Shown here: one piece after another, positions 8,634 to 53,561 of the stretch
Numbering within the stretch: the first letter of the stretch is position 1
Layout: each line of letters begins with the position of its first letter
Virus record (IMG/VR): IMGVR_UViG_3300045988_058566
Coordinates: 122,600-186,599 of that record
DNA length: 64,000 nucleotides
From: a virus
Direction: 5' to 3' (one strand)
The notes under the pieces: generated by a model
What the model was told of the DNA's origin: nothing
Seen by the model: only the letters and a program-made list of their open reading frames with translations
The model's database searches: none
Program-made: the position numbers and the translations under genes

Positions 8634-8680
8634 CTTCTGACAAACCAGATGGAGCTGAATTAGGCTTTTTTCTTCCCATA

Positions 8681-8980
8681 TTACTTAGAAATTGTTTGGT
8701 TAGCGAGATAATCTTTAATTAATTGAGTTGCAGTCTGGGTATAATCAATCACTGCATCCAAATTTTCTGGAAGTGCTGTAATATTAATATTAACCATACC
8801 ATCAGTTGGAACATTATAATTATAATAACCAACTTGATTATTCAACTCTCCATCTTTACTTACATTAAAATTAATAGAAGTGCTGCCATTAACTTCCTGA
8901 GTAGCTGAACCTGAAATAGTCCAACCATTAGAAGTTGTATCACTAAGATTAAATGTCTGATTCTGTTTTGTTATTTCCAT
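8681..8980 (-). CDS. hypothetical protein (TAG-free)
   Basis: Intact 99-aa ORF; TAATG junction with the upstream gene. Confidence 0.5.
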   Translation of the reverse strand: MEITKQNQTFNLSDTTSNGWTISGSATQEVNGSTSINFNVSKDGELNNQVGYYNYNVPTDGMVNINITALPENLDAVIDYTQTATQLIKDYLANQTISK

Positions 8981-9432
8981 TACTTAATAAATAATTCATA
9001 AAAAGCTTCCATAAGGTCAGCGGCTTTTACTTTCTGACCATTAATCTCATACTTACCATCAGAATTTACGTCAAGAATATCACTATATTCATCTTCTGTA
9101 AATGTGTCTTCAGGTGCATCTTTAATATCTTCATTACCTTTTTGCATAAGATATTCTTGATACTCTGAATTAGCTTTACTATTAAGTTCATTAAACTTAG
9201 TTTCCTCTTCAGGTGTGCGCTCCGTCTTATTAGCTAAATCTCTCAATTCATCTGAAACAATTTGCTTACTAAACTCTTGGGTATCCTCATCAAACTGTTT
9301 CTTAATCTTATTATAAGACATTCTAATTCTCATAATCTTTACTTTCAACTCCTTAGGGAGTTCTTTGCCATTATTGGCTAATAAAATCTTTGTAATAAGA
9401 TTCTGTTTTGTCAAAACATCATTTAAAGTCAT
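8980..9432 (-). CDS. hypothetical acidic protein (TAG-free)
   Basis: Intact 150-aa ORF. Confidence 0.5.
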   Translation of the reverse strand: MTLNDVLTKQNLITKILLANNGKELPKELKVKIMRIRMSYNKIKKQFDEDTQEFSKQIVSDELRDLANKTERTPEEETKFNELNSKANSEYQEYLMQKGNEDIKDAPEDTFTEDEYSDILDVNSDGKYEINGQKVKAADLMEAFYELFIK

Positions 9433-17304: not shown

Positions 17305-17869
17305 TACTTCCACTCATTAAATTATCATATAAATCTTTAGGAATTTCATAATTAACCCTAATTATAGTTCCACTACTATTAGTTACTGGAATACTAGTTA
17401 TGTAATCTGATAAATCAATAGTAGTTTTGGATTCTCCTAGTTTTTCCCATTTGTAAGTTTCGCCTACTTTAACGCATAGCCACTCTACAAATATATTTGC
17501 TCCATCTTCAGTATTATCTGAAGTTCCTGGAACTAAGTATAAAGTATTAGTTACTTCTGCAGATGCTTGTGGTAATGTAGAAACAATTTTATAAATATCT
17601 CCAATATTGGCAGTGGTACTAATTACTCCATCTTTAATAACTATACCATTACCGGCAGTTAATTTATCCTATTTAGTGTCCTATAAATTTTTAATATTTA
17701 TAGTATTGGTACCAACTACTCCTGTTAAACTATATAAGACTCGATCAAGAGTCGTTATCTTTAAGGAATTAAATCCAGGAAGATTATTAGTATTAACTAC
17801 AATTGCTTCTGCTAAAGAAATAGGAACAAATTCTTTACCTTGTTGAAATAATCTTCTAATTTCTGTCAT
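17288..17869 (-). CDS. hypothetical virion protein (193 aa, TAG-containing)
   Basis: Track ORF 17681..17869 extends through TAG to TGA 17288-17290, in frame. Confidence 0.5.
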
Positions 17870-18309
17870 AAACCAAATAATTGTTCAGGAATTTCATAAT
17901 CTATATTTGCTTTAATAGCAGAGTTAACAAAGTCTAAATTCTCAACCAAATTATATACTTCTTTTTTGGTAATAAAAATAGATGTGTCTAGATTTGCAAC
18001 TGCATCTGCTAAAACTTTACCTACTTCATCTTTACTATAAACTCCTAAATTATTCCTAGCTAATGCCTTCTCAGATTCCTCTTTAAATTCTCCTAAATAA
18101 TTTTCTTTACAAAGATGAGTATGTAGCTCAGGTTTAGGACAATTTGTAGTTAATTTATCATCACAGCTAAATCCACTATCTATAGTTGTCTTTTTAAATT
18201 CTACTTTATCAGGAATTTCGATAGGAATAGAAGGAGGTTTTTCAGGTTGTGGTGGAACAAAAATGGACCAGGAGGAATTATCTCCCAGTCCAATCTTTAT
18301 GTCATTCAT
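17866..18309 (-). CDS. hypothetical protein (TAG-free)
   Basis: Intact 147-aa ORF; ATGA overlaps at both ends. Confidence 0.5.
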   Translation of the reverse strand: MNDIKIGLGDNSSWSIFVPPQPEKPPSIPIEIPDKVEFKKTTIDSGFSCDDKLTTNCPKPELHTHLCKENYLGEFKEESEKALARNNLGVYSKDEVGKVLADAVANLDTSIFITKKEVYNLVENLDFVNSAIKANIDYEIPEQLFGL

Positions 18310-21700: not shown

Positions 21701-24700
21701 AATATCTAGAAGTAAGTGTTTTTAGCTCTATTATCAGTACCTGATAAGAATCTAATTACTGCTTGATGCATAGCTACATCATTTACGTCTATATACTTAG
21801 TTATGCCCTTCTTAAATAAAGATTTGAGTTCATCAATAGCTATATCAAGCTAATTAATACTAGAATCCATTTCAAAGTCTTCGTAGATATTAAGTCTTGA
21901 CCAACCAGTAGTAGGATCGTATATAGTACCTCCTCTTACCCAGCCTCCAACAGCTTCTCCAGTAGCACTTGTACTTCCTGCAAACTCATCATAACGATAA
22001 ATATCACCTTCTCTAGAACCAGTAAATGCTGGAATAGCTTTAGTAGCTATATATCTATTTAATGTATTCCATTTAGTAATATCTGTTTCACCAGTCTTAA
22101 CTAAATTAAAGTTGTATTTATAAACAAAGTCTACAAACTCTCCAAACTTATTTAATGATTTACGAGCAGGCTCTGTGAAATCAGTAGCATCCTCATTTAA
22201 TCCAAAGTCCACATCCCAAGAACCACGATTCTAGTAAACAATAGATTCATCCTAAATCCAAAGATTCTTTGTATAATCTCTATTAGGTGATTTCTATTCT
22301 GCTACTGTTACTGTAGGGAAATTAGTTAATGTTTTAGAACCTGCTGCATTTAATCCTACACGTTGTAAAGCAGCCCAAGGTCTTCTAAAGTTAACATGAG
22401 GGTCAGAGTTTTCACCACCCTCTATTAAGATATATTCAGGAGTTTTATCATCATCGTAACCAAAAGTAGCCTTATCTCCTTTAGCTGAACCAAATGTCTA
22501 GAATCCCATAAACTAAACATTAGGATTCTTAAGTAAGTCCGCTAATTCATAGTTAGCTACAGACTCTAAATCAGTAATTAAATAGAAGTATAGGAAAGCT
22601 TCTTCATGTACTGCCTTACGACCTCCCATAAGTAACCCGGTCTAGTCAGAGTCTGATTTATATGCATCATTATAAAGTTTACAAGCACCCTCTTTATGAG
22701 ACTACATAGAAGAGGCAAAATTAACCTTACCTACGAGTTTAGTTACCCTTAAATCTTTTTCAGAAGAGTCATACTAACCACTATAAGGAGGCATGTTGTA
22801 GTAACCTTTCTTTTCATGGGTAGGTTTAGCTATGAATTTATTAGTAGTAGTATCTAAATCTTCATAAGGAGTAAATATACTCTTTACTTTAGTTTCTCCA
22901 TCCTTAAACTTATTTAACTAGAATGCTGTATTCCAAATTAAATAACGCATAGCAGAAGAACCCTAACCCTTAACAAGACCATTATTTATTCTACCGCCAT
23001 ATATTTTATTAATTGCCTAATCAGCATAGTTAATAAATAATGTGCATCTAATTTTCTTAGCTGCTTTATCTTGATCTCCAGGTTTATTATTTTCACCTTG
23101 CCAAGTTCTATTTGGTAACTTACCTCCTTTAGGGAATACATATACTAATGTATTGTATTTACCAAAACTCTTAGCAAATGAGATAGCACCATTGGTTCCT
23201 AAGATATTATTTCTATCATAGAACTTATCCTTCTACTCTCTAGTAGCTAAGAAAGAAATATAATTATGCTAAATCTAATCAAAGGTAAGTGCTGTAGAAT
23301 TATAAACTCTTAACAGATATAAGTCTAGGTCAGAACCCTTAGGATTTATTTGTAACTAAGCTTCCTTCTACAAGGCGAGTAAAGTAGCATCATCAATAGA
23401 TATTTCTCTGTTAATTACCCCATTAACATAGATTCTTACTAAGTTAAACTTGGCACTTTCCAAATTAGCTTTTAATGTATTATAAGAATCCTATGCCAAG
23501 AAATAATTAGGGTAATATGGATCATTCTAATTAAGAGTAAATCCTTTTTGTACAGTAATAGTAATATGAGTATCTGTGTCTTCTTTGAATTGTGCAAATC
23601 TAGCATTATAAAGCTATGCTGCTGATGTATTCCAGCATACTACAGTTGGTTTAATTAACATTTGACCAAATGTAATTACTGGGGACTCTTCATTACTTAT
23701 ATTATAGGATTTAAATCCAAATTCAAGAGTAAAGTTATTACTTAACTATAAATCAACAGGAGTTTCAAATACTTTATCAGTGTTAGACTCTACTCTATAT
23801 ATTATCTTACCGTCTGAAGCTGTCCAATAATCTGGACTAGTATTAAACAAAGTAGTAGTTCTGCCATTTATCTAATCAAAGTTAATTGTAGGTCTAGGAC
23901 TAGCAGTATATAGATAGTTAGCATTTGCTTTAGAGATAGATAAGGTCTGATAATTAGACATAAATACCTTATCAGAACTAGTTGACTGGAACTAATAAAG
24001 CTTGCCATTTACCTCTACTTGTAAATACTATTTAGCATCATCACTATTTACTTCTATATATTTCTTATAAGTAACATCATACTTATTATTAGCATCATAA
24101 TTCTGAGCATTAACTACTACAGTATCAAGTAAGTTCTATCTGTCATCTGCTGAGTCAGAATTTAGATATGTATTAATAGTTACTGACTCTTTAGTAGGAC
24201 TATAAACAGTAAGTGTATACAACTTTACTGTATCGTGATTATTAATAGAACCAGTAATTCCATTTACTGCCACAGCAACTCCACTAAATCCAGAAGGATT
24301 AATTACACAAACATTTATATAATTTGTTGCAATGTTTTGAGTTTTATGTACTGCTTTAACAGTTAATAAATTTAATCCAGGCTATAATCCTCCAAAAGAC
24401 AAATTACCATCAGTGGTATTTGTAGGTTTTGCATTTAAATAACCCTCTAAGTGATATTCTGAAGCCAAACCTCCTTCAAGGGTAAACTAAGCAGTAGTAG
24501 AAATAACATTGCCTGTATACGACAGAGCTATTTTCTAGCTTTTAATAGATACATTAAGAATGCTAGATTTTTGTGGATAATCTACAAGGGTAGCAGTAAT
24601 TTTACTTTCCTATGAATCATTAAATAATTCTGTGATATTAACCCATCTTAATTCACTGTCAGCTTTATTGAGGTGCTCAATTTTTGTACCAGAGGAATCT

Positions 24701-29417: not shown

Positions 29418-30307
29418 TACTTAACTATTGAAATTAATTGAGGTTCACTCCATATATTCTTATTGTCGTCTAAAACATAATTATTATTATTCTAGGAAGC
29501 AGAAATCATCCATAGATAACCAGTGAACTCCTATTCGTTAGTATCTGTCCACTAGTTACCTGGATTTATTGCAGTTTTAGTTAATTGAGGTTTTTTAAAA
29601 GTACTAGTTACTGTAAATTTAGTAACAAGTCTACTATCATAAGCCCATTTAGAATATAATGCAACTTTAAATAAACTCCAGGCACCACTTACTCTCTATC
29701 GTACTGCCATAAATCCATAAGGATTAGACGCAGTTATTTCTGATGGATATTTACTCCAATTATTTTTACCTGCTTCACTAGCTTTAATTATTTCATCTAT
29801 AGAAGCATCTGTATCATCTACATTCTATAGTTCCCCATCTACTTCTACTGCTTTCTATGGATATATTACCTTAGGCTACTAAGAATTATCTTTTACCATA
29901 TATAGAGTCTAACTAATCTCAGCAATATCTGCAGTTACAATTTCATAAAATTTCTAACCATCTTTAAGATTCTATCCTTCAAAATACACAATAGTCCTTT
30001 TCCAGGTATAAGGAGTCTTTACAGAAGGTAATACAAAGTTTTCACCCCACTAATTAGTTTCAGGCTAATTTTCTAACTCCTTCACTTTAGCAACATCTGC
30101 TGTATTTGTAGCTAAATAATCTATTTTAAACTTTAAAGATTTAGCTACTTCATCAGCTCCCTATTTTTCTGAGATCTATCTAGCAAGGTCTGCTAAATAT
30201 ATATCAAGTGTAGTGTTTTTAGCTAGAACTGTAACTGCTTTATCTGCTGTCTCTGGATAAATCTAATCACCGGTTCCAGAGTATACTTTTTCACAACTGA
30301 TTGCCAT
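29417..30307 (-). CDS. hypothetical virion protein (296 aa, TAG-containing)
   Basis: ATG 30307..30305 and TAA 29417-29419 are in frame; TAATG overlaps at both ends. Confidence 0.45.
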
Positions 30308-32478
30308 TATGATTGTCTAATTTTATCATTATAAGGATTACCATCGTTTAACTAAGCTAATTCAACCTTAGTTCTCTAATCCTCTATATCTAATTGTCTA
30401 TCTTTATAAGTTCTATCTGTTTGAGCCTTATACCAATTAACTTGATATTCTAATTGAATCTTCTGCTAATCAAGCTGCATTCTTTGTTCATTAAGAGACT
30501 CTGCTTTCTATTGAGCTTTCTATAATTCTTGCTAAGCCTATTGTAGCTACTAACTGGTTTCTTCTAACTTCTACTACAGCTACTATAACTAATTGTTTTC
30601 AGCTTTCTATTTTTCTATAGCTTTCTTAACAGTATATTTAAGTTCAGTTAAACTCTTAGCAGTAAGAGCTTCAAATATAATATCGGCACTAACTAATCCA
30701 GACTTAATTAAATCAGGCAATGTAGATTTAATTGTCTGCATATCCTACATAATCTCAGTACTAGATATTACATGTATATCATAGTCTGTAACTGTAAAAT
30801 ATTCAGGAAGTGCCGTAAATATTTTCTAGTACTTATCTCCCAGAGTAATAGTACCAGTTAGTCCTTTCTTATAAACTATTTTAGCCTAATTGAGGCTATC
30901 TAATAAGACTTCTCGCACAACTAAATCCATTTGCTAATAGATAGGTTTAGTTACAGTATAAGAATTAGTTACTCCCTATTTAACATTAGTTACAGCATCT
31001 CTCTATTCAATGCCATTAAGTCTTTCTCTAAATACACCTGTAATAGATGATACAGTAGATTCAATAGATTGTATAGCCAAATCAATTGCTTGTATTACCT
31101 ATGCTGGTAAAGATTCATCATAGCCATTAAATATAGTATTTAAAGGAGCCTATCCATCTTCCATTCTTCCCTCTTGAGAAGAATCAATCAACATTTCTCC
31201 TTGTTTCTTATAAGCTCTCCATTTCTTTACCCTAGCTCCAAAATCTGGACCTAATACTTTAGGAATCATAGAAATGTCAATAATACTACCCTTAACACCA
31301 CTATTTGCTACGATAGCATCTCTATAATAGTGTAGGAGATCATAACGATCCTACAAATGGGCACATTTTAAGATTAAACTATAAGGCTAACGTGCTCTAT
31401 TTAAAAAATAGACACCATTTACTGATAATCCACAATAATTAGGATTATCATGACTTCTAATTACCTATTTATCAATTCCCCTAAGAATATAATATTCATC
31501 ACCGATTCTAATTGTATTATATCTCTACATAATAAATTTATCATCAGTTTCTATCCATTCTACTTCGTATACTGGAATTAGATTATATCTATGGGAATCA
31601 TCTTCAGGATAACCTGGGAGTAAATCTTGTTCTTCATCATCGTCACTGGCTTCATCTATATCTACAACTGGACCAAAGGCTCTTCTATATCTAGCTGTAT
31701 CATCGTCTGTCCAGTTCTATTTAAAATTACGTAAGTCTTCTTTACTTAATTCATTTCCATATTTAGCTAATATCTAACTTTTAGAAAGCCATTGTCTCAC
31801 AACTGACCTATAAGATTTTTTAACATAAGGAGATTCAGGATTTCTATCTACAAAAGTATTTAAAGGATTTAATACTTCTATTTCAATATTAGTTTTACTA
31901 AATGATGGCTTTACTCTGTAAAAACAATAACCTGTAACTAATAAGTCTATAAATAATTGTCTAAGTTTAGTTACAAAATCAATTTCTTCAGACTACATAA
32001 TGTATTGAAGAATATTCTAAGCAGCAATTTCATATTGAGAAACAAATTGCTAATCCTACTCTTCAATTATTTTATCTAACTACTATTTAATAGATTTATC
32101 AGTAATATCCTAGTTATTAGCAAATTTAAGTAAGGAATTATTTAAATGAGTTTTTAAAAATCCTATTATTTGTGTCTATATTAATAGCTATTTTTCTCTA
32201 TCCATATTACTGATAGTCCCTGCATCTTTACAGGATATTTTTGGTAATATAGGAGTTCCTAGAAATTCACCAACTAAAGCATCTACATGTTTTCTTAGTA
32301 AAGGTGTAAATTCAACAGAAGTAGGACTTCCTATACCAAAATTTTCTTCTAAATAACGAAACTATTCCTTATCTCTTTTTCCATTATAATAATTATAAGC
32401 TTTCTATAGCTTAGTTTTATCATATACAAGTTCAGAAATAGTTTCGTTAGTCTTATCTATAAGCTCTTTGTCTGTCAT
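30307..32478 (-). CDS. putative portal protein (723 aa, TAG-dense)
   Basis: ATG 32478..32476 and TAA 30307-30309 are in frame. No track ORF because TAG is so frequent. Follows the large terminase; size fits a portal. The C-terminal Q-rich coil has TAG interleaved with CAA/CAG (30547-30609, checked). Confidence 0.55.
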
Positions 32479-32716
32479 AACATAGTTTAGGTTCTGGAGG
32501 TTGTATTTTAATTGCTTTAAAATACTTTACTCTATGTAATTTACTTCTTCTTAATTCCTCTTTTATAAAATCTACAAATTTATCATCAGGTAAATCTGCC
32601 ATTAATACAAAGGGGTTCTCGGCATGGTCTAGATTAAGAGAAACTTTATATCCTATAGGGTCTAAATCTTCAATACGAATATCTCCTATAAAGTCTATCT
32701 AAAACTGTGTTCTCAT
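32453..32716 (-). CDS. possible small overlapping gene (87 aa)
   Basis: ATG 32716..32714 and TAA 32453-32455 are in frame; overlaps the terminase 3' end and the portal 5' end. Confidence 0.3.
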
Positions 32717-35030
32717 ATAATCTAGGATCACTTGTTTCAATTCGGTATGGGTCATTATTTTCCTCCTATTTAATTACTATTTGATTTGGTTGTTTCTTTG
32801 GAATAACCCCAAATTCTCTATAACCTTTGTCATTTATATAATATCCGTAGTCCTAAAATTCTTCAACTTCTTTGTCAACTTTTGTAGGTTGTCTTCCTGA
32901 TAATTCCTAATCTGCAAGTTCAACCATTCCAAGTGCAGCTATAATATCAAATTTTGTTTTATTCTCATCATTATAACCATTTAACTACACCAACATGTCT
33001 TCAAACCAGATATTATGTCCATAGTCTTCTACATAATCAGCTATAAGGTCTGTTTGTTGCTCTATAATAGTTTTAGTTGCAGGGGTGCCGTACTATTTAG
33101 TAGTACCATGTTTGATATCCGTTAAAGTCGCTCTAGGTCTCTTCATAAAGTATTGTAGACATTTATTTTCTCTAGCCCAAGTAATCATACCTACACGGGT
33201 AGCCTCTATATTAATTCTACAATTATAATATCTGCACATACACATAGCTATCTTATAAGCTTCTCTAATATTTTGAGGTCTGTCTTTATACATAGCTACA
33301 TATTGTGGTTCATTAAGACCGAAGGCTCTACGTTTAATTACAATACAAAAATCAGAAGGGTCTCTAGTTTCTTTAGAAGTCTAAGCAGCACCAATATCAA
33401 TACCATCAATACCCGCTACATATAAATCATTCATTTCTGTATATACAGGAGCTTCAAAATCAATCCCCTATTCTTCAGCTTCTTTCTTCTACTTCTCAAT
33501 CTGTTCTTTATATAAATCAGACCATACTGGATGCTCTAATATCTAAACTTTACCAGAATTAAGAAGCCATCTAAATCCATTTATATTTTCTAAAGAATGC
33601 TTATTAGATTTGTAAGTATAATCAATAGTTCCCACTTGTGGTCTAGGTCCAATTTTATGAAGACGTATTTTAGCTAACTAATCTGCTATCTTCATTTTAT
33701 TAAATTTATTCTAACCTTCAAGAGTAAATGCTTCTTCTGCATTCCAGCAACGCTCAGCACACTTTTTAAGGTAGTCTTCAGGAACAGCTAACAGATTATT
33801 TCTTTCTTCTTGTAATATCTTCTTATATTCTGTCTAATTACAAACTCCTCTAGAATCCATGTATTCAGGATTCAAAGATTGCAGAAAATAAGGAAGAAAG
33901 AATCCACTCTCTATAGTAGTTCCGTCTTGTGTCCATTTATGTCTAAATGGTAGAATCTTAAAAGCCTTAGGATTATAATAAATCTTTTTTAATCCTTCAA
34001 GAGGAGGACCGAAATCACCTCCAGTACCACCAAATAACATAATACCTCTAGGAACACCTTGTACTTCACATAACTCTTGTCCTTGTACTACAGCAGTGGT
34101 TAAATCAGGCCACGAACCAGCCTCATCATAAATAAGAAGATCAACACGGTCACCACGAATATTAGAAGGCTTGCTTCCATTAATTCCTATTACAACAGAA
34201 CGCCATCCAAAGTCTGTGAACTGACCATCTATTTTAACTTGGTATCCTGATTTCTTTTCTAGGGCTTTATCTGTTAATCTAGGCTTAAAAAATCCATCAG
34301 CATTCGTATTAATAAATGTGAGAGCATGGTCTAACTTACTAAAGGTACCATTTAAATAGGTATCTTTAAAGCAGGTAATCATAGTTCTACTTCTCTTTAT
34401 AGTAGTGTATAGTCTAGCTGCAAGAGAAGCATTTATCTCACTGAAACCAATTGAACGGGCTTTCATTAAAGCAGCATTTTTATGTAGTACTCTACACATC
34501 TATAAATAATGAAAGAACATATATTGAGAAGCAAAGAATACCGGAAAACTTTCATTAGTACCTTCACCTGATGCTTTATCCATATCTACTACTGGTAACT
34601 AATAAAAATTTAAGAAGAAATAGTTATCTCCAGTAATAGTATATCCATGTGAGGTCATACCATATTTACATCTAGTATATTGTTCTTTCCAAAATGCATC
34701 CCATCTTTTACTTCTAGGTAAATAAGAACAATATCTTCCAGTTCTTAGAAATGTTTCTCTAACTTCGGTAAACCATGAGGGGTCAAAATCTAAACCATGA
34801 GTTTCATCTATAGGTCTATAACCAGTTAATTCATAAGATAAAGTAGGATCAAAACATTCTATTTTCATATCCTTAGTAATATCCCAATATGTCTTATCAT
34901 TAGAACGTTCAATTCTATATTCATCAACTAATTTCTTAGCTTCTTTAGTGTCTTCTTCCTACTATTTCTTTTTTACTTCATCTACAATTAACTAGATTTC
35001 ATCAGGTAATACTTTCTTCTTTCTAGGCAT
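32670..35030 (-). CDS. terL: terminase large subunit (786 aa, TAG-containing)
   Basis: Fragments 33093, 33834 and 34599 and start ATG 35030 share a frame. Gaps 33294-33836 and 34500-34601 were checked and contain only TAG. Motifs MKARSIGFS (Walker A-like), DLLIYDEAG (Walker B) and VAGIDGID (nuclease Asp). Stop TGA 32670-32672. Confidence 0.8.
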
Positions 35031-35623: not shown

Positions 35624-37042
35624 TTATTTCATCTTTTTCTTTTTCTTAAAGTTTTTAATAGGGTCAGATTTTCCTCCATCTTGCATCTTTTTACCTGCAC
35701 ACATTTTACAGATTTCTCCACCCTTTTTAAAATATACTACTTCTTGACCTTCAGGGCATTCTCCAATAGACTATTTAATATAATCTAACTTAGCGCCGAG
35801 TCTTGCCTTACGAGACCCCTTCATTTGTTGAACAATAGCCTGCAATAATTTAGCTACTTGAGCGGCTTGCTAATCACCTTGTTGTGCTGCCTACATAATT
35901 TTCTAAATAGTCTAGTTGGCTTTTGTATCACCCTACATAGCTGCCTAAACTAAAGCCATTGCCTACTATTCTATTCCCTATTGTCCACTTGCCTATTGTG
36001 GTTGTACCATTTGTGCTCCTGCTTGATATTTATACATCTATCCTCCTTGTTTAAATTTTAAATTAACTAACTAATTATTCAATTTATTTGTATCAGTTTC
36101 TGGTTTTAATAACTAATTAGTTCCAATACTATTTACCATTTTCTAAGTACGCTAATTCTGTACCTAATTAATAAATGGCTGGTACTTAGAGTCCATAGAC
36201 CCAGGATTATTTAAATATGTTCTTAAAGCTTTTCGTTCACCTCCTGAATAATCATATGGATTCATACCTATAGAACGCATATAATCTCTAGTCTAGCTTC
36301 TATTATAAGTAGGAGTTGGTGCAGTAGGTAACTCTACAGTTGGAGTAATTTCCTTTACTGGAGATTTTGGCACTACATTATCTAACGTCTATAAAGTCAT
36401 AGTATTAACTGCAGGAGTCTGTGTAGACTAATTGAACTAGTTACCTCCTCTCTTACTATAAACATTATTTAAGTAACTAGCTAAATCTTTGTGCTGGGAT
36501 AAATAACTTCCCACTTTACTAAAGTCTCCAGTCTTATAAGCATTTGCTACATCTGCCTGAGATACTCCATTATAATTCCATATTCCTCTACCCTTATTAA
36601 TCCATGAATTAGATGCAGGAGCTTTTGGAGCTAATGCAGCTCTTGGTCCACTAGTTGCAGGAGGTGTACTAGTATTAGGTTTATCTGTAGAAACGGTAGG
36701 AGAGCCAGATTTTTTAGTAGCCTAAGATTTAGTGGATTCATTTTGGTTATTAGGAATAGTTGGATTATTCCATGAATAAGAATAATTTTTAGTATTCCAT
36801 GTACCTGTTTGTCCCTTTCTATTAAACATAGTACCATTTATATTCCACGTAATTCCTGTAGTTGGATCATATAAGGAATTTTGTTTCTAGTTGAATAAAT
36901 AATTAGCATTCAGTTTACCATTACTAAATCTTTTATTTAAAAAGTGATGAAATGTAGTAGGAACTGCTCCCTATGTAGTATAATAGTCACTTCCGTGAAC
37001 TTTCATTCCTGGATTTCTAATAATTTTAGTAAAATTTGCCAT
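35624..37042 (-). CDS. hypothetical protein, read as one 472-aa ORF across TAG 36038-36040
   Basis: ATG 37042..37040 reads in frame to TAA 35624-35626. At 36035-36049 the sequence is AAGGAGGA-TAG-ATG, so under the standard code it would be two genes. C-terminal CPEGQEV...CKMC zinc-ribbon-like motif. Confidence 0.45.
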
Positions 37043-37044
37043 AA

Positions 37045-37230
37045 TTATACAAGTATTAAATCCTTAGTGTTGAATACTGCTTCCTACATTAAACCTGAAT
37101 CAGTAAACCATCTGCATCTCAATCCTTTCATTTCATCTTTAAATATTGCTTGCTCTTTTCTAATAACAAGCATAGCCGGACAATGCATTTTGTCACGCTA
37201 ACGTAACTAAACTACATCTCCCGGCTGCAT
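37045..37230 (-). CDS. DUF2158/YodC-like small protein (61 aa, TAG-containing)
   Basis: MQPGDVV(TAG)LR(TAG)RDKMHCPAMLV...LRCRWFTDSG pattern; ATG 37230..37228 and TAA 37045-37047 are in frame. Confidence 0.4.
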
Positions 37231-37240
37231 GTAAACTTTA

Positions 37241-37846
37241 TTACTTGTTTCCATTATCTTTAATTTGATTCTTTCTTTCTGTTAATTTCTCATTAACTAT
37301 TGCCATAATTCGTGATTCATTAACTACTACAAATCCTTGCTTGAAAAATGGAACAGTAGCTTCACTAGCTTTAGTAAAGAATACTACATCACCTTCTTTC
37401 AAGAACTCACACTTGAATCCAGTTTCAATTACAGTACCAACACGAATAAACTGTTCCAGTTCGTGAATTTGACCATCTTCTTCACTCTTATATTGAGGAG
37501 TAAATCCGCCCAAGTCTGTAATAATTCCACTCTCTACTGTTACCTTTTGGAAAGGATTCTCCTCAAAAGGTTTAATCAATGCATAAGAACCCATTGGTAA
37601 TATCTCTAAACCATTGATGTCCTTTGAGATTTCTTTAGCATAGTCTTCAAGTGCTTTATTGTGTTTTTCAAATTTATCTACATATTCATCTACTTTAGTA
37701 TTAAATTTAGACTTCTTCTCATTAGCTAAAATAACGTCTGCTCTTTGTCCATTAACTACAATAGGAGTTCCTGTACTTTCCATACCAATAAGTGATTGAG
37801 CTACTTTCTCTTTTCCATTTAATTCACTTCTAAAATCCATAGTCAT
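37241..37846 (-). CDS. protein with C-terminal GroES-like co-chaperonin domain (TAG-free)
   Basis: Intact ORF; ...ILPMGSYALIKP...GTVIETG...LKEGDVVFF...IMAIVNE resembles the GroES / T4 gp31-type fold signature. Confidence 0.45.
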   Translation of the reverse strand: MTMDFRSELNGKEKVAQSLIGMESTGTPIVVNGQRADVILANEKKSKFNTKVDEYVDKFEKHNKALEDYAKEISKDINGLEILPMGSYALIKPFEENPFQKVTVESGIITDLGGFTPQYKSEEDGQIHELEQFIRVGTVIETGFKCEFLKEGDVVFFTKASEATVPFFKQGFVVVNESRIMAIVNEKLTERKNQIKDNGNK

Positions 37847-37868
37847 TTACATTAATTTATGGCAATAA

Positions 37869-38114
37869 TTACCATTTACCTTGTTCACAAAATTCATCTT
37901 CAATTCTAGTTTTATTATCTAATACGCATCCACATAAATCACATAAGTCACCGAAGTTAGTATCTAATTTATGGTCACATCTATGACATATACCTAATCT
38001 TGTAATAGCTAAATCTTGATGTTTATTCTTAATATTATAATATATGCTTTTTAATATAGTTAATGGCTTAGTTAAAATACCATGTAACCATTTAATTAAT
38101 ATGTTTAATTTCAT
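37869..38114 (-). CDS. Cys-rich zinc-binding-like small protein
   Basis: Intact ORF; CHRCDH...CDLCGC; ATGA overlap with the upstream gene. Confidence 0.45.
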   Translation of the reverse strand: MKLNILIKWLHGILTKPLTILKSIYYNIKNKHQDLAITRLGICHRCDHKLDTNFGDLCDLCGCVLDNKTRIEDEFCEQGKW

Positions 38115-38332
38115 TCTGCTTCCCATTTATTACAAGGACAATGTGAGTTCTTATTATTAATCTTCCATTTTAGGTGGCATCCGCACCCCTTTAAGTATCC
38201 TTTCTTAGGTGTTGTACTTACATCATTATTTTCAGGATTTAAATATAAATGTGCATTACAAATCTCATTTTCTTGGTCACAAATAGGACAAGCTCTACAT
38301 ATTTTAGTACGTTTAGTTATATATTCTTCCAT
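38111..38332 (-). CDS. Cys-rich zinc-binding-like small protein
   Basis: Intact ORF; CRACPICD...GCGCH...CPC. Confidence 0.45.
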   Translation of the reverse strand: MEEYITKRTKICRACPICDQENEICNAHLYLNPENNDVSTTPKKGYLKGCGCHLKWKINNKNSHCPCNKWEAE

Positions 38333-38423
38333 ATATTAATGTGTATATTAGTTCTTAGTTAATTCCATTATAGTGCTATAAATTAAATAGGCTATTAGTA
38401 ATAATGCTATACATAGTATCATA

Positions 38424-39338
38424 TTAATATTCAATTCGTTTATTCTTTAATCTACGTTCTTGTAGAAGATGTTCCTTTTCATAATAAGATAACATACGTT
38501 CTACTTCTTTTCTAAGATAAGGTAGATGATAAACAGTCATATTGTCATTGTGATCAAAATGTACTAATACTAAATCTTCTATACTAAAGTCAGGATTATA
38601 TGATTCAATTATATAAGCATAAGTACTAAGCTGAAGACAATAATGATAATAATTACAATCATCCAGATTATTTAGAGGAAACTTCATCTTAACAGAACTT
38701 CTTACTTTAGAATCAAAATAACTCTTGGTATCAATCTTCTTATTTGTTTTCCAGTCTCCAATTACGATGGAATTGCCTTTTTTAACTAATAAATCAATCT
38801 GACCTGCAATATGTAATTTACCAGATGGAGAATCCCAATGAATTAAATACTCAGGGTATACTGCATTCTCCAAATCTAGAGAAGTTCTATCTTTTTGGCA
38901 CTCAAATTTACCTCCTATTTGATATTTATCTAGAGTAATATTCTTTTTCTTAGTATAAAAGGAATTCTCTAATCCTGCATGTATTTTAGTGCCTCTTTCA
39001 CAAGACCTTCTATTTTCCTCATCCCAAGAGTCTAATATTTCTTGCTGTGCTTTATTAAAATCTAGCTCAGTAATATTATGTAACTCTAACAGAACAGGGT
39101 CAAATTTCTTAGTATTTAAAAGAGACTTCTTCTCAATCTTAAATTCATCAGCAGGTAACAATTTCTCTAAGGCTTTATATGCTGACCAAAATTCTTTATC
39201 AAATGGCTGACCAAATTGTTCAATCATAGTAGTTACAGAAGTGAACTTGATAGATGAGTCGTTAACATCCCAGTAACGATGTGCTTCTTCATTAAAAGCT
39301 ACTGTTCCGTTTTGTTTATCAATACTTAAATTTTCCAT
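38424..39338 (-). CDS. PD-(D/E)XK nuclease (RecB/Cas4/lambda-exo-like exonuclease)
   Basis: Intact 304-aa ORF with GQIDLL...IGDWKT (D...DxK) and QLSTYAYI (QxxxY) motifs. Confidence 0.7.
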   Translation of the reverse strand: MENLSIDKQNGTVAFNEEAHRYWDVNDSSIKFTSVTTMIEQFGQPFDKEFWSAYKALEKLLPADEFKIEKKSLLNTKKFDPVLLELHNITELDFNKAQQEILDSWDEENRRSCERGTKIHAGLENSFYTKKKNITLDKYQIGGKFECQKDRTSLDLENAVYPEYLIHWDSPSGKLHIAGQIDLLVKKGNSIVIGDWKTNKKIDTKSYFDSKVRSSVKMKFPLNNLDDCNYYHYCLQLSTYAYIIESYNPDFSIEDLVLVHFDHNDNMTVYHLPYLRKEVERMLSYYEKEHLLQERRLKNKRIEY

Positions 39339-39461
39339 ATAACATTAACATTTTACATTTATTTTATATTTATCTAAACTAATTTTTAACTTTTCAATAA
39401 TAATATATAATTAGGTGTATAACAAATTAATTAGTAATATAAACTCTTAAATTTAATTAAA

Positions 39462-40184
39462 ATGGAAGATTTAGAAATATTTGGTATTCCTTATCTAGCT
39501 AAAGGTTCCGGAATACACATTAAAAAGGAAAATAGAGGGAAATTTACTGAAACTAAAAAGAGAACAGGTAAAACTACTGAAGAATTAACTCACAGTAAAA
39601 ATCCTCTAACTAGAAAGAGAGCCATATTTGCTTAGAATGCAAAGAAATGGAAACATGAAGATGGTGGCGAAGTACATAAGCCAAATGGTCATAGATCAAT
39701 ATTAGATAATGGATGGTTTAAAACAAAGGATTTAAAGAAGAATCATCCTCTTACATATTAGTAGGGTGGACCTTTTTAGATTAGTAATTCATAGCCTCAA
39801 GTATTACAAAGATATATTTCCTTAGTTAATTAGGGTATTCCATAGCAGGCTGCTTTTGACACTTCACACTTATCTATGATAGAAGATGGCAGACCTGGAA
39901 AATATTATTCATTCGGAAGAAGGGCATCTAACTTAGGTGGATGGACTAAAAATGCAACTGATAGTCTAACTAATGGTAGATATAGAAATTTATAGAATGC
40001 CTAGAACTTTGGATAGTTTAAGCAGGGATTAAAATAGAAGAACTATAATACAAGACCTGCTTTCTATAATACAGAAATGAATAGAGGAAGAAATAGGGAT
40101 AAATAGATTATTAATTAGTGGAATAAACAATAGGGTTTGAATCCAATCGCTCAAATATATAATTAGAATATTAACTAGGTATGA
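39462..40184 (+). CDS. hypothetical protein (240 aa, TAG-containing, plus strand)
   Basis: ATG 39462; codon-by-codon read MEDLEIFGIPYLAKGSGIHIKKENRGKFTE...RAIFA(TAG)NAKKWKHEDGG... with many in-frame TAG; ends at TGA 40182-40184. Confidence 0.55.
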
Positions 40185-40603
40185 GAAAAGCATAGTTATT
40201 AAAATATTAGCAAGGGGGTAAAAATAAATGGCATCTTGATAATCCTTATTTAGATGCAGCTGTAGAATTAACTCCACTGGGCGATGTTAGAGATATTTAT
40301 GAAGGTATGCAATCAGGTAATTACTAGCAATCTGTAGGAGGTGTAATAGGATTAGGAGGATCTATAATTGGAATTTCTGTCTTACCTAAATTAATAAAAG
40401 GCTATAAAGCATATAAAAAACTAAGTAAAGCTAATAAGATAGTTAGAACTAGTCCATTTAGAATAGTTAGAAATTAGGCTTATAATGAAGGAAGGGCTGC
40501 TTATAATACATTACACAGAATACCTTATTATAAAATTGCTGGTTCTGCGGTGGCTAAAGGAATAGATGGAATAAATGACCTAAAATCGATATTTAGTAAA
40601 TGA
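40181..40603 (+). CDS. hypothetical protein (140 aa, TAG-containing)
   Basis: ATGA overlap with the previous gene; in-frame TAG; stop TGA 40601-40603. Confidence 0.5.
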
Positions 40604-40701
40604 AAGATATAAATATACAATTGAATGAACTACAAGAATTTTTAGATTTTGTAGATGAAAGAGATAAGTAGTTGTGGAATAAATATTTAAGAACTAAATA
40701 A
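40600..40701 (+). CDS. small hypothetical protein (33 aa, one TAG)
   Basis: ATGA overlap; MKDINIQLNELQEFLDFVDERDK(TAG)LWNKYLRTK; stop TAA. Confidence 0.35.
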
Positions 40702-40710
40702 AGAATAATT

Positions 40711-41172
40711 ATGGGTAATATAAGAGATTTAATTAACAGTACTAGAGATTTTTTATTTTCTAATAGAACCCCCATTTAGAATATAACAGCATTAGCTATG
40801 GCTTATTAGAAATATAATCCTAATAGTCAGTATAATAAATAGAAAGGTAAATTCGGAGGTAGTAAATCTTTTAATGGTGGAGGTTCAGGCGGTTACTGGA
40901 CTTCCGTAAGGCATTCTGTTAAAAAATTTAATAACTTTAATGATGCCTTCGATGATGCAGTAGATAGAAAAGCTTCTACATTTACCTTTGGTAATAAATT
41001 ATATAATACCAAGAAAGAAGCAAATCCAATTAGAGAATTTAATAACAGAACTGTAGGTTCTTACAGAGATACTGTTATGGTTAATGATAGAGGTAAAAAT
41101 TATGGCGTAGATTTTGGTCCTATAAAAGGTCCTGCTAGTTTAATACCCTTAGTTTATGATACTGATAAATGA
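40711..41172 (+). CDS. hypothetical protein (153 aa, three in-frame TAG)
   Basis: Every codon read: MGNIRDLINSTRDFLFSNRTPI(TAG)NITALAMAY(TAG)KYNPNSQYNK(TAG)KGKFGG...; stop TGA 41170-41172. Confidence 0.6.
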
Positions 41173-41378
41173 AATAGTTTTTAATTAAATTAATAACAGC
41201 ACATACTGGAGTAAGTAGTAAAAGAGTGTGTGGAATATTAGGATGGATAGTTAGTTTAATAGTACTTATATATTGTAGTATTGTAACTAAACAAGCACCA
41301 GATATGATAGATACAGTTTTATATTGTTGTATGGGATTATTAGGTATAGATAGTATAACTAGTATATGGAGAAAATAA
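41169..41378 (+). CDS. small membrane protein, holin-like (69 aa, one TAG)
   Basis: ATGA overlap; MK(TAG)FLIKLITAHTGVSSKRVCGILGWIVSLIVLIYCSIV...; two hydrophobic segments; last gene of the cassette. Confidence 0.45.
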
Positions 41379-41407
41379 TTAATTATAGTAATTAATAGAT
41401 ACAATAA

Positions 41408-41439
41408 AAGGCGGCTTAGCTTAATTGCTAGGTCGCCTT
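41408..41439. terminator. bidirectional terminator hairpin between convergent genes
   Basis: aaggcggcttagc / gctaggtcgcctt stem (about 13 bp with G-U pairs) and T-rich flanks. Confidence 0.6.
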
Positions 41440-41461
41440 AAATATTTTATAATTTATAAAC

Positions 41462-41773
41462 TTAAATTGAAATATTAATCTTATTATTTTCACGTTTCTT
41501 AGCTACATCAGTACAATTCACTGAATTACCTATAGTGTGGTCTGTTTCTAATTGCAGAGAATATAGTGTATCTGAAACAAATGGAGATTTCAATTTTGAA
41601 TTTAACAAAACATTATCCATACTAGGATATGTGTAACCTCCGCTATTAATGTGTACAGAATTATTATAACTAGGAATCTCTTTAATACAATCAAGTATAA
41701 TTAATAATTCATCTATATTTAAATCAGACAATGCTGAGTGTATATTTTTAATAGTTGCTTTATAATCAATCAT
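41462..41773 (-). CDS. hypothetical protein (TAG-free)
   Basis: Intact 103-aa ORF; TAA stop. Confidence 0.5.
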   Translation of the reverse strand: MIDYKATIKNIHSALSDLNIDELLIILDCIKEIPSYNNSVHINSGGYTYPSMDNVLLNSKLKSPFVSDTLYSLQLETDHTIGNSVNCTDVAKKRENNKINISI

Positions 41774-41788
41774 TGTTTTAGAATTACA

Positions 41789-41974
41789 TTAGTATCTTAC
41801 CGATTGTTTGTTTAATTCATCTAGATAATTAAGAAACCATTGCTTATCTCTAAATGGTTCTGCTAGTACTTTATCTACTGTTTCCTCTGCTTTATTTAAA
41901 GACCGCATAGCATTTCTATTTAAATAGTCTTCGTAAATATTATAATTTTTAGTCAATTTGCTCATAACCTTCAT
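41789..41974 (-). CDS. hypothetical protein (TAG-free)
   Basis: Intact 61-aa ORF. Confidence 0.4.
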   Translation of the reverse strand: MKVMSKLTKNYNIYEDYLNRNAMRSLNKAEETVDKVLAEPFRDKQWFLNYLDELNKQSVRY

Positions 41975-42269
41975 TTATTATTCTTATATCATTATCATAT
42001 ATACTAGTGTGTGTATAACCAGTTTGTCTATTGACATAGTGATGTAAAATCACACTACTAGTATCATCTACATTGTCATCTATTACATAGTTCTTTTTAA
42101 TTATGTAATCTAAATAATTCTCAGCCTCTTTTAAATCCCCCTCATAATCCTCTTGGAAAAGGATTTGTATTTTACTATCTAATTTAGACTTTTTCAACTT
42201 CTTAAGTTTCTTTTCTAAATTAGTTGTTTTTAACAGCTTGTCATTTAATTTATAAATTGCTATAATCAT
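41949..42269 (-). CDS. hypothetical protein (TAG-free)
   Basis: Intact 106-aa ORF. Confidence 0.5.
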   Translation of the reverse strand: MIIAIYKLNDKLLKTTNLEKKLKKLKKSKLDSKIQILFQEDYEGDLKEAENYLDYIIKKNYVIDDNVDDTSSVILHHYVNRQTGYTHTSIYDNDIRIINEGYEQID

Positions 42270-42295
42270 AATATGTATCTTTTATAATTAAATTG

Positions 42296-42367
42296 TTCTC
42301 TCACAAGGATTCGAACCCTGACTAAAAGATTTAGAGTCTTCTGTGCTAACCATTACACCATAAGAGA
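42296..42367 (-). tRNA. amber suppressor tRNA, anticodon CTA, Gln-like body
   Basis: Minus-strand cloverleaf: tctctta tg gtgt aatggtta gcac a gaaga CT-CTA-AA tcttt tagt caggg ttcgaat ccttg tgagaga a. All four stems pair and the T-loop is canonical. It shares U1-A72, the D-arm (gtgt..gcac) and the variable loop (tagt) with the phage tRNA-Gln(TTG) at 53486. Confidence 0.9.
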
Positions 42368-42414
42368 ATATTAGCTAGCTATTAAAAGAACTAGCTAAAT
42401 GTGTATTTAAGTTA

Positions 42415-42813
42415 TTAGTTAAATTTAACTAATTGCTCATTTAAGTATTTAGTTTTATCTGCAATGAACTTTCGTGCGTGTGCTTTAAAATAAGAAATAG
42501 CAGAACGAACAGATTCAATATTTTCTGAGTCTAAACAATTTTGAATCTTTTGTAAACCATCATTACCAATCTGCTCGCAAATGTCTACAAACAACTCATC
42601 ATCCAAACCATTCAAGAAATCTGTAAACTTCTCTACTTCAGATTGTACTGGATTAGTGTATTTAACACTAAGTTCAAAACCATTATCTGAACTATTCATT
42701 GAAATATCTAAACCATTTTTATTAAATTTATAATCTTCATTATTTTCAGAAGCTTTCATAAGCTCTTGAAATTCTTCATTTGTCATTATTCCTTCTAACA
42801 AGTTTTCAACCAT
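42415..42813 (-). CDS. hypothetical acidic protein (TAG-free)
   Basis: Intact 132-aa ORF; first gene of the leftward unit. Confidence 0.5.
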   Translation of the reverse strand: MVENLLEGIMTNEEFQELMKASENNEDYKFNKNGLDISMNSSDNGFELSVKYTNPVQSEVEKFTDFLNGLDDELFVDICEQIGNDGLQKIQNCLDSENIESVRSAISYFKAHARKFIADKTKYLNEQLVKFN

Positions 42814-43024
42814 ATTAATTAATATTTTAAAATTGTTTTAATTTAGTTCTTTTTAATCACATTCTACAATAGATTAAATGTCAAAAATATAAAAGTTAAA
42901 ATAATTTAAAATGTGACAATAAAAGCTTTATACCTAAATTATTGTCAAAAATCATTGTTTTAATCCCCCCCCCCTGATTTAGTCTGATGTTAAAAATTTA
43001 GAGAGTTATTTAAGCTACGGTAGA

Positions 43025-43290
43025 CTACTCGTTTTAGCCCCCGGGGCATCGAGTAGGAAAAATAAATATTAAAATAGCCAGTTATTAGCAACTATTAAAA
43101 CATAGATATAAATAATTATATCGAAACCGAGCACGTCAAGCTCGTCTGGGGCAACTGGCAAAAGTACCTCATCGTCGGTCACGCATTCAGTCTGACCTTA
43201 AGCTACTGAATGATTTTGCCCATTTCCAAGAAAATGGGATAGTCTCGTCCACTCCGAAAGAGTGGTCGGCGTAATGTTGCGCCTAATCCT
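43025..43290 (+). other. GC-rich multi-hairpin region upstream of the first rightward gene (candidate structured leader or ncRNA)
   Basis: Hairpins ctactcg..gcccc/ggggc..cgagtag (43025-43056), cgagc/gctcg, cattcagt/actgaatg, cccattt/aaatggg, ccactc-cgaaa-gagtgg and ggcg/cgcc. Clearly more GC-rich than the flanks. Confidence 0.4.
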
Positions 43291-43299
43291 AATTTAATT

Positions 43300-43812
43300 A
43301 TGGCTACAGTAATCGTAAACAATGACGCTAATGTACAGGTTGCAAATGGTGGTGAGAATATGCGCTTACGCAATTCTATGTCCATCGACAACTTGTTGGT
43401 GGCATTCCCAGACAGTCTCCCTACAGACTTTATGCTCAAATTCCATAATGATTTGCGCTATCAGCGCAATAGAACAGAGTGGAGCGATAAGTGCTATTGC
43501 GGTTTGGTTCCATTCTACAACGGAGTTGAGCATATAGAGTTTGCTATGTTGCAATGGGATTTACTTGTCGCTGATATTGCAACATTCAATGCAAAAGGCG
43601 AGTTCGCTGGGTTTGTTACACCTAACGATGAACTTCACACCTATGCTCGTTCCACAGCTTCTGCCGACATCACGATAGAAGCTTGGATGCAGGGCATTGC
43701 AAAACACTTCAATGATAATGCAAAGGATTACAAGTTCACCAAGTTGAGCTATCTCTGCAAATATGAGGAGCGACTCTATACTCGTGTTCTACTTGGCATT
43801 ATCAAGAAGTAA
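43300..43812 (+). CDS. hypothetical early protein
   Basis: Intact 170-aa ORF; higher GC; terminator follows. Confidence 0.6.
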   Translation: MATVIVNNDANVQVANGGENMRLRNSMSIDNLLVAFPDSLPTDFMLKFHNDLRYQRNRTEWSDKCYCGLVPFYNGVEHIEFAMLQWDLLVADIATFNAKGEFAGFVTPNDELHTYARSTASADITIEAWMQGIAKHFNDNAKDYKFTKLSYLCKYEERLYTRVLLGIIKK

Positions 43813-46381: not shown

Positions 46382-46722
46382 GCGGATAACACAATCGAGA
46401 CGGAAACGGCTGCAAGGTGGCGCTGGAGTGGGAGAGTGGTTTTTACTACTTTCCCATTACAAGTGAATTTTCAAACATTGGGGGCATAAGTAACTCACAC
46501 TCCAATGTTTTAGTGAAACATAAATTAAAGTCATAATTAAATAGGGATTAGAAACCTTTTAGTGTATAGGTTAACTAATAATAGCTTATGCAAAAATAAA
46601 ACTCAGCTAGGGAGAGTATAAAATTCATGTTGATGAGACCTAGACGAAACACAGAGGAAAATTATTAATTACAAGATAGTATTAGTAATGACTCTGTGTC
46701 CATAAACTAAAATAAGTAAAAA

Positions 46723-47073: not shown

Positions 47074-47750
47074 ACTAAAAACACCTGAGCAAGTGTATAA
47101 ACTGCTGTGTTTAATCTAAAAAATCTGGCTAGGATATATCTAGCTATAGGTTGCCGTACTACAGTCGGAAAGTAATACAGGGTATTGTGTAAAACCTGTT
47201 CCTATTTAATATGTTTTAAATTAAGTTAAAAAATCATCCTAATATATAGCTAAATAGTAGAACGGGTGTTTATCCTTTTATAGGTTTGTGCAGGAAGTAT
47301 TTAGCGCGTCGTAACACATTGAAAGTATTACTGGTAGAACTAAAGTATTAAAAGACTTTAGAAGTAAGAAAGCGTAAAGACAGTTAGTAGAGGGGATAGT
47401 AAGTGTTGAAGGACTCTACAAAAGCGAGGAGATTGCTTTAATATCTCTTCTCGTGCATGGGATAGAACGTGTACTAAGTTAGAGCATGATAGACTATAAA
47501 GCTCATTTTTTAAATTATTTACAGATGTATTTGCCACAGATATATTCTTTCGATGTCTATATAAGAAAGAACAAAATATATCTGGTTACACGGCTTAGTA
47601 AACTTGATAGACTACCTAACTAGGGTAAAAACTAATTCGTCATCCAGAAGACGTTAAAAATCATACTGATGAGGCTGGACGAAATAGTTAATAACAGTTG
47701 TACGTTATTAACTATCTATGAACAATTAAATAAGTAATTTAAAATTTGAT

Positions 47751-52661: not shown

Positions 52662-52751
52662 ATACGGATGCCTGAGTGGTCGAAAGGATAGGTCTCCAAA
52701 ACCTATAGAGACGAAAGTTGAACAACGTGGGTTCGAATCCTACTCCGTGTG
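52662..52751 (+). tRNA. class II (long variable arm) tRNA with anticodon CCA, Ser-like body
   Basis: atacgga tg cct gagtggtcgaa agg a taggt CT-CCA-AA accta [21-nt variable region] gtggg ttcgaat cctac tccgtgt g. The D-loop is identical to that of the phage tRNA-Ser(GCT); discriminator G. Confidence 0.7.
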
Positions 52752-52768
52752 CAAATTAATTATAATTA

Positions 52769-52854
52769 GTTCCCTTAGCTCAGTTGGTTCCGCAAGGCTA
52801 GAGAGCATCGGACTTTTAATCCGAGGGTCATGGGTTCGAACCCCATAGGGAACA
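52769..52854 (+). tRNA. tRNA-Lys (TTT) with a 21-nt D-loop
   Basis: gttccct ta gctc [agttggttccgcaaggctaga] gagc a tcgga CT-TTT-AA tccga gggtc atggg ttcgaac cccat agggaac a; otherwise canonical. Confidence 0.75.
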
Positions 52855-53064: not shown

Positions 53065-53137
53065 GGCACTATCGTCTACCTGGTTAGGACGCCACTCTTT
53101 CAAGGTGGAAAAACGAGTCTGAGTCTCGTTAGTGCTG
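53065..53137 (+). tRNA. tRNA-Glu (TTC)
   Basis: ggcacta tc gtc tacctggttag gac g ccact CT-TTC-AA ggtgg aaaa acgag tctgagt ctcgt tagtgct g. Confidence 0.85.
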
Positions 53138-53255: not shown

Positions 53256-53328
53256 GGTCCGTCTAGTGTAACTGGTAACACGGTAGTTTGTGAGACTACA
53301 ATACAGGGTTCGAATCCCTAGCGTGACC
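53256..53328 (+). tRNA. tRNA-His (GTG) with G-1:C73 but three acceptor-stem mismatches
   Basis: g gtccgtc ta gtgt aactggta acac g gtagt TT-GTG-AG actac ... aggg ttcgaat ccct a gcgtgac c; positions 4-6 (cgt) face cgt. Confidence 0.6.
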
Positions 53329-53485: not shown

Positions 53486-53556
53486 TGGACTATGGTGTAA
53501 CGGTAGCACCACAGATTTTGGTTCTGTTAGTCCCAGTTCGAATCTGGGTAGTCCAA
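53486..53556 (+). tRNA. tRNA-Gln (TTG)
   Basis: tggacta tg gtgt aacggta gcac c acaga TT-TTG-GT tctgt tagt cccag ttcgaat ctggg tagtcca a. Confidence 0.9.
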
Positions 53557-53561
53557 CAATC

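Follow-up and report, generated by a model that had tools for sequence, protein, structure and literature searches.

We analysed a 64,000-nucleotide stretch of viral DNA (positions 122,600 to 186,599 of the IMG/VR record IMGVR_UViG_3300045988_058566, one strand; hereafter the window), focusing on eight minus-strand genes that lack the codon TAG and lie around an amber suppressor tRNA gene. The window has a GC content of ~31% and is organised in two divergent arms. The early/replication arm (43300-63888, plus strand) holds a tRNA array and is open in the standard code with TAG as stop; its 42 open reading frames (ORFs) end in 26 TAA, 11 TAG and 5 TGA codons. The late arm (159-37042, minus strand) comprises structural and packaging genes, including a large terminase (32670-35030) and a portal (30307-32478), both on the minus strand and both crAss-type by PHROG matches. 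Its 31 ORFs are open only when TAG is read as a sense codon, with 314 in-frame TAG among 12048 codons (2.6%), and TAG is the commonest glutamine (Gln) codon there. When the late-gene TAG sites of the window were aligned to unrecoded relatives, 116 of 246 fell on Q, with E next. Because the TAG sites align mostly to Q and the suppressor is similar to the tRNA-Gln(UUG) encoded by the phage, TAG is evidently reassigned to Gln in the late genes. By DNA and protein similarity the phage belongs with the crAss-like phages of the gut; contigs of close relatives in IMG/VR measure 160-225 kb.

The eight minus-strand ORFs are located at 37241-37846, 37869-38126, 38111-38332, 38424-39338, 41462-41773, 41789-41974, 41949-42269 and 42415-42813. 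As a first-pass annotation of the window had described, they contain no in-frame TAG (0 of 1065 codons) and end in TAA (seven genes) or TGA (38111-38332). Each specifies the same protein under genetic codes 11 and 15, which makes them dual-coded. The amber suppressor tRNA, with anticodon CUA, was identified by ARAGORN and Rfam (tRNA model, 63.5 bits) at 42295-42367 (minus strand). It sits at the 5' end of the recoded strand, with the divergent junction ~500 nt away and the TAG-sense genes of the late arm to its left, again as annotated. It shares U1-A72, A73 and the D-arm with the phage tRNA-Gln(UUG) at 53486-53557 and is probably charged with Gln, judging from these shared elements. A second suppressor tRNA was looked for in the tRNA array of the window and none was found.

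The absence of TAG from these genes was compared with two expectations. At the rate of the late genes, ~28 TAG would be predicted in 1065 codons (P ~1 × 10−12), and position-specific base composition predicts 13.7 in-frame TAG for the pooled set (P = 1 × 10−6), while out-of-frame TAG triplets are plentiful in the same genes (48 and 23), showing no avoidance out of frame. Taken one by one, seven of the eight genes are too small for significance (P 0.14-0.53), and only the nuclease is significant. The early arm behaves alike: the same composition test gives 0 observed against 67 expected in-frame TAG, because TAG is a stop codon there. The absence of in-frame TAG is therefore the default state of any standard-code gene. 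All genes on the recoded strand, the eight included, end without TAG. In early genes that end in TAG, back-up stops are not unusually close (median extension 4 codons, Mann-Whitney p = 0.13 versus genes ending in TAA or TGA), and only 2 of the 11 early-arm TAG stops are TAG-TAA tandems.

For the four genes of the nuclease block (37241-39338), the labels given in the first-pass annotation (nuclease, Cys-rich, GroES-like) are backed by family matches. The gene at 38424-39338 (minus strand, stop TAA) encodes a PD-(D/E)XK exonuclease (phrog_298 at 6 × 10−25; PF12705 at 25.7 bits, cutoff 22), in which D182, D195 and K197 of the D...(D/E)xK motif are invariant in the alignment; its tblastn matches are to the crAssphage PD-(D/E)XK nuclease of the replication module. 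It is followed by two Cys-rich paralogues on the same strand (38111-38332, stop TGA, and 37869-38126, stop TAA), both matching phrog_13558, with a weak DUF6171 match in addition, and by a GroES/Cpn10-like co-chaperonin candidate (37241-37846, minus strand, stop TAA; phrog_3188 at 3.7 × 10−6 over residues 82-185; PF00166 at 20.7 bits, just under the cutoff of 21.1). The GroES-like stop lies 10 nt from the start of a 61-amino-acid DUF2158-like ORF (37045-37230, minus strand; PF09926 at 22.0 bits versus a cutoff of 22.3 with TAG read as Q), which contains three TAG and is the first TAG-sense gene of the late arm, with the late genes following directly. In functional terms, the eight-gene set combines a nuclease of a replication/recombination family with a GroES-like protein that points to assembly, and five genes have no assignable function.

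The remaining four TAG-free genes form, with the suppressor tRNA, a 1.4-kb operon bounded by a terminator. Its first gene (42415-42813, minus strand, stop TAA) encodes a 132-amino-acid acidic protein of a phage-only family; the product has no Pfam or PHROG match, and its 91 homologues are all unannotated phage proteins. Its AlphaFold2 model (mean predicted local distance difference test score, pLDDT, 88.6) folds as a small beta-sheet with a helical bundle and found no fold match in the PDB (best E = 0.23, template modelling score 0.3). Between this gene and the tRNA lies a hairpin with a terminator-like match (42371-42398, minus strand), possibly a site of processing or of weak termination. 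Downstream of the tRNA follow three small ORFs (41949-42269, 41789-41974 and 41462-41773, minus strand, spanning 41462-42269). Their content varies among relatives, with orthologues in only 4-6 lineages, and 41789-41974 is replaced by a different gene in many close relatives. None of the four ORFs flanking the tRNA matched a known family in Pfam or PHROG, and no release factor or aminoacyl-tRNA synthetase was found by these searches among the genes at 41462-42813. The operon ends at a strong bidirectional intrinsic terminator (41408-41439, both strands; 13-bp stem with seven GC pairs and T-runs on either side), which is predicted to close both the tRNA operon and a convergent cassette on the plus strand.

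This inverted cassette (39462-41378, plus strand) sits between the two TAG-free blocks, converging on the tRNA operon and diverging from the nuclease block at 39339-39461. It consists of five plus-strand ORFs (39462-40184, 40181-40603, 40600-40701, 40711-41172 and 41169-41378) with 16, 4, 1, 3 and 1 in-frame TAG, respectively, packed so tightly that starts and stops overlap at ATGA; no other stretch examined is as dense in TAG. The first ORF matches, in its N-terminal domain, a small gene that belongs to the structural module of other crAss-like phages and is called 'transcriptional regulator' there, and the last ORF encodes a small membrane protein matching phrog_1322. Orthologues of both lie opposite in strand to the nuclease in relatives, unrecoded ones included. 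By its reading frames the cassette depends on TAG suppression, and its genes are of late type. Its two ORFs at 40181-40603 and 40711-41172 have no orthologue in the 14 closest relatives, in which the cassette is shorter and its first gene ranges from 85 to 379 amino acids; the cassette thus appears, from gene content, to be a hotspot of gene turnover. The order read leftward is: divergent junction, TAG-free gene, suppressor tRNA, three TAG-free genes, terminator, inverted TAG-sense cassette, four TAG-free genes and TAG-sense late genes. The simple order of the first-pass annotation, which ran from the TAG-free genes to the TAG-sense genes and was read as a built-in temporal buffer, had left out the cassette, and TAG-sense genes in fact precede the nuclease block.

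To place the window in its clade, we used the nuclease as an anchor, which retrieved 80 IMG/VR loci and two GenBank records, reduced to 38 lineages at 95% nucleotide identity; 32 of the 38 lineages are TAG-recoded. In recoded lineages, TAG accounts for 43.6% of Gln codons in late genes and 62.9% in the cassette, but for only 0.7% in the early arm; the eight-gene families stand at 4.9%, with 38 TAG in 21871 codons. Sense TAG in the eight-gene families is thus about ten-fold below the late-gene level. As a stop codon TAG is absent from these families: the 118 orthologue stops comprise 93 TAA, 25 TGA and no TAG, compared with early-arm TAG stops of 7/39 by orthology and 18/123 by de novo calls. 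The minor stop of the eight-gene families is therefore TGA rather than TAG, the reverse of the early arm of the window. Within the nuclease block we count at least 11 independent switches between TAA and TGA and none to TAG (P ~0.002 given the TAG share of non-TAA stops in the early arm). We regard the stop-codon comparison across the clade as moderate evidence that these genes differ from those of the early arm.

The rarity of sense TAG is not absence. The homologue of 42415-42813, encoded 5' of the tRNA and in its orientation, carries one to four sense TAG in 7 of 13 lineages; for instance, EEFQEL in the window corresponds to EDqFREL in L032 and qDqFKqL in L033. The GroES-like orthologue of L007/L018, a relative 98% identical, has codon 132 changed from CAG to TAG and codon 186 from GAG to TAG, with the other changes mostly synonymous. 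Sense TAG occurs in the Cys-rich gene 38111-38332 in 8 of 32 lineages, in the GroES-like gene in 3 of 32 and in the nuclease in 2 of 32, and, by de novo calls, at least one gene of the tRNA operon contains TAG in 12 of 23 lineages. The TAG-free state of the flanking genes is therefore not strictly conserved in recoded relatives, in which TAG is rare as sense and missing as stop. Correct translation before and after the suppressor appears is true of the window genes by construction, and the clade-wide comparison lends the statement some substance.

The layout itself proved older than the recoding. A suppressor tRNA 5' of the nuclease and in the same orientation was found in 23 of the 38 representatives. 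Unrecoded relatives (L015, L085 and L087-L096), whose late genes have no TAG and in which no suppressor was found in the stretch fetched, also show the order nuclease, Cys-rich, GroES-like, head/packaging genes, together with the opposite-strand cassette. Because unrecoded relatives share it, the layout of the nuclease block evidently predates recoding.

Taken together, these observations lead us to favour, with moderate confidence, a reading in which the eight genes are ordinary dual-coded genes at the junction, of a middle or throughout-infection class, with leaky avoidance of TAG. Comparison with relatives places them in the recoded regime, in which TAG is never a stop and is occasionally sense. 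They keep the ancestral state without sense TAG, none ending in TAG, and yield the same protein at any suppressor level. As middle genes, or genes expressed throughout infection, they would be made at a sub-saturating level of the suppressor, at which a sense TAG may be mildly harmful and a TAG stop unreliable. Sub-saturating suppression of this kind would leave TAG rare but not forbidden in these families across the clade, as is seen. Relatives whose nuclease, Cys-rich, GroES-like or 42415-family gene contains sense TAG would have to make these proteins while suppression is active. In crAss001, genes fall into three temporal classes, with replication/recombination genes in the middle class and the chaperone in the late class. 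We consider that the data provide modest support for a leaky intermediate gene class at the head of the recoded strand.

Several points weigh against this reading. The anatomy, the TAG counts and the pattern in relatives are observed, whereas timing and selection are inferred: the timing draws on spacing, codon usage and the analogy with crAss001, and the low rate of sense TAG could mean that nothing favours TAG, not that selection opposes it. Within the window, TAG stops number 0 of 8 in the set and 11 of 42 in the early arm, a difference short of significance (Fisher p = 0.11). The comparative counts come from our own gene caller and BLAST-defined orthologues and are not phylogenetically independent. 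Early and late genes are only weakly distinct in codon usage: the nuclease block groups with the late genes, and the four genes of the tRNA operon fall between. For the whole set, the share of CAG among CAA and CAG is 18%, compared with 43% in the early arm and 21% in late genes, and GC content at third codon positions (GC3) is 0.20, compared with 0.26 and 0.19, respectively. On the other side, and in favour of the reading, the nuclease block stands only 10 nt from the DUF2158-like gene and resembles the late genes in GC3 and codon usage, which suggests that it is co-transcribed with them. The first-pass annotation had proposed that the TAG-free genes are expressed earlier than the late genes; the spacing and codon usage point instead to co-expression, an outcome it had itself named as telling against its proposal. 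A sigma-70 promoter scan of 36800-43400 returned 44 sites versus 43 in shuffled sequence and was not used.

A more ambitious interpretation is that TAG usage is a graded readout of expression time, maintained by selection and divided into three classes. Early genes would tolerate TAG as stop and never as sense, and the middle class (the tRNA operon and the nuclease block) would avoid both; late genes would use TAG freely as Gln, at a share close to that of a neutral synonymous codon under AT pressure. We regard both the graded readout and this division of labour between early and middle genes as tentative proposals.

A plainer alternative is that the eight are simply standard-code early or middle genes whose TAA and TGA stops are the default of an AT-rich genome, with nothing to set them apart from other TAG-free early genes. 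Much in the window agrees with this, since 31 of the 42 early-arm genes are equally free of TAG, the stop-codon contrast and most of the single-gene tests fall short of significance, and the nuclease belongs to the crAssphage replication module. The comparison across relatives is what makes it unlikely in our view: sense TAG in these families would be impossible if they were translated under the standard code alone, the stop-codon switches of the nuclease block all avoid TAG, the minor stop is the opposite of that of the window's early arm, and the codon usage and GC3 of the nuclease block are late-like.

Still more doubtful, we find, is the proposal of the first-pass annotation, i.e., an evolved, ordered temporal buffer around the suppressor (TAG as stop, then absent, then sense) that spares damage at the code switch. 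The TAG-free state of the window genes, the clade-wide rarity of TAG as sense and its absence as stop, and the position of the tRNA at the head of the recoded strand would all be expected of such a buffer. However, the order is broken up by the TAG-dense cassette, the first gene of the tRNA operon requires suppression in about half of the lineages that have it, a similar fraction of lineages has TAG somewhere in the tRNA operon, and the layout of the nuclease block is ancestral and present in unrecoded relatives. In addition, most early-arm genes are just as free of TAG, and the lack of TAG stops among the eight is not significant in the window. That the ORFs of the tRNA operon are instead code-switch machinery (e.g., a modulator of release factor 1 or of tRNA charging) requiring translation before suppression is very improbable: 13 lineages show linkage of the 42415 family to the suppressor tRNA and Jade phages do have code-change modules written in the standard code, but the ORFs resemble neither release factors nor aminoacyl-tRNA synthetases and match no known family or fold, the 42415 homologue cannot act before suppression where it carries sense TAG, and the other three ORFs are poorly conserved.

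The three-tier idea, which the first-pass annotation considered not to have been spelled out before, is essentially in print. Pfennig, Lomsadze and Borodovsky (Mgcod; 10.1101/2022.06.29.495998) reported, for phages that use both code 11 and code 15, blocks of dual-coded genes, a 'soft switch' by which such genes are not disturbed, and a Sup-CTA tRNA at the 5' end of the strand with TAG-reassigned genes. Our phage resembles theirs in having genes that give the same protein under either code, in the position of the suppressor tRNA and in a block readable only with TAG as sense. It differs in that their whole non-recoded block is dual-coded and early-enriched, whereas here the eight genes lie on the recoded strand itself, and their families, clade-wide, are unlike the early arm in never using TAG as stop and occasionally using it as sense. 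Borges et al. (10.1101/2021.08.26.457843) proposed that stop-codon recoding regulates late and lysis genes, with standard-code-compatible genes made first, then a suppressor tRNA, and last the structural and lysis genes rich in the recoded codon, and reported code-change modules written in the standard code. Our phage has the corresponding gene classes and a heavily recoded cassette of small genes. Unlike their code-change modules, the genes beside the tRNA include no match to a release factor or aminoacyl-tRNA synthetase, and the only hints that the TAG-dense cassette might serve in lysis are a predicted membrane protein and a structural-module domain.

The phage is probably of the Zeta type among crAss-like phages (PMC12386605; Yutin et al., PMC7886860). 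The contig size of its relatives and the intein and interrupted tRNA of one of them fit the description of Yutin et al., and the many tRNAs, the code switches within the clade and the confinement of recoding to late genes are likewise shared with the phages of these two papers; the crAss-type terminase and portal PHROGs and the DNA matches to crAss-like genomes give indirect support. Zeta crAss-like phages with a suppressor avoid TAG stops or back them with TAA in TAG-TAA tandems (PMC12386605). Where theirs are absent or backed by TAA genome-wide, 11 of the 42 early-arm genes here keep a TAG stop. What is new here is, modestly, the clade-level sequence evidence for an intermediate class at the head of the recoded strand.

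Four further TAG-free genes are embedded in the TAG-rich late arm (8226-9432 and 17866-18309, minus strand), all without a family match. The three adjacent genes at 8226-9432 amount to 384 codons, for which the probability of no TAG at the late-gene rate is ~5 × 10−5, and the hydrophobic sequence of 8226-8633 resembles a multi-pass membrane protein. These may be differently timed or recently arrived genes.

Several RNA features were recorded in the junction and the early arm. A GC-rich, structured stretch on the plus strand (43000-43299; minimum free energy -82 kcal/mol, z = -3.2) lies just 5' of the first early-arm gene and could be a 5' leader or a small RNA. The portion at 43024-43299 is conserved at 94-95% in close relatives and 77% in L030, and an Rfam search of the junction region (42780-43420) gave no match. 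Two intergenic RAGATH-1 hammerhead ribozymes are predicted on the plus strand of the early arm (46600-46705 and 47637-47721; 68.1 and 62.0 bits, over the Rfam gathering score). The tRNA array contains odd members at 52662-52752, 52769-52854, 53065-53137, 53257-53328 and 55561-55633 (plus strand), among which are a 91-nt tRNA-Trp, a tRNA-Lys(UUU) with a 14-nt D-loop insertion misread by ARAGORN, a tRNA-Glu(UUC) and a weak His-like tRNA seen by Rfam only, and a tRNA called Tyr with anticodon ATA.

Among the recoded relatives, L016 (MT835539.1) carries insertions at two sites. At 10157-11232, an insertion of ~990 nt separates anticodon bases 2 and 3 of its suppressor tRNA gene and encodes a 272-amino-acid HNH endonuclease (10207-11025); the insertion looks like an anticodon-loop intron, judging from its position, and Rfam gives no match to it and no group I model. 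At 20001-21950, an intein bearing LAGLIDADG motifs interrupts its nuclease orthologue within the catalytic D-x-K site (VDHK | intein | TNEKID). The first residue of this intein is Gly, not Cys, Ser or Ala, and the ORF of nuclease plus intein, ~650 codons, is wholly TAG-free. A second suppressor-like tRNA was found in the early-arm tRNA region of the L033-L061 group (~4150-5800, minus strand in the locus), with an anticodon that ARAGORN reads as CTA in some genomes and as TTA (ochre) in near-identical others; it has no copy in the window.

For annotation, the practical consequence is that the region needs two genetic codes: unless TAG is translated as Gln, the cassette and the DUF2158-like gene are missed. 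Should the intermediate class be real, TAG usage would offer a sequence-only clock for early, middle and late genes in uncultured recoded phages, and it would support a gradual ('soft') over an abrupt code switch.

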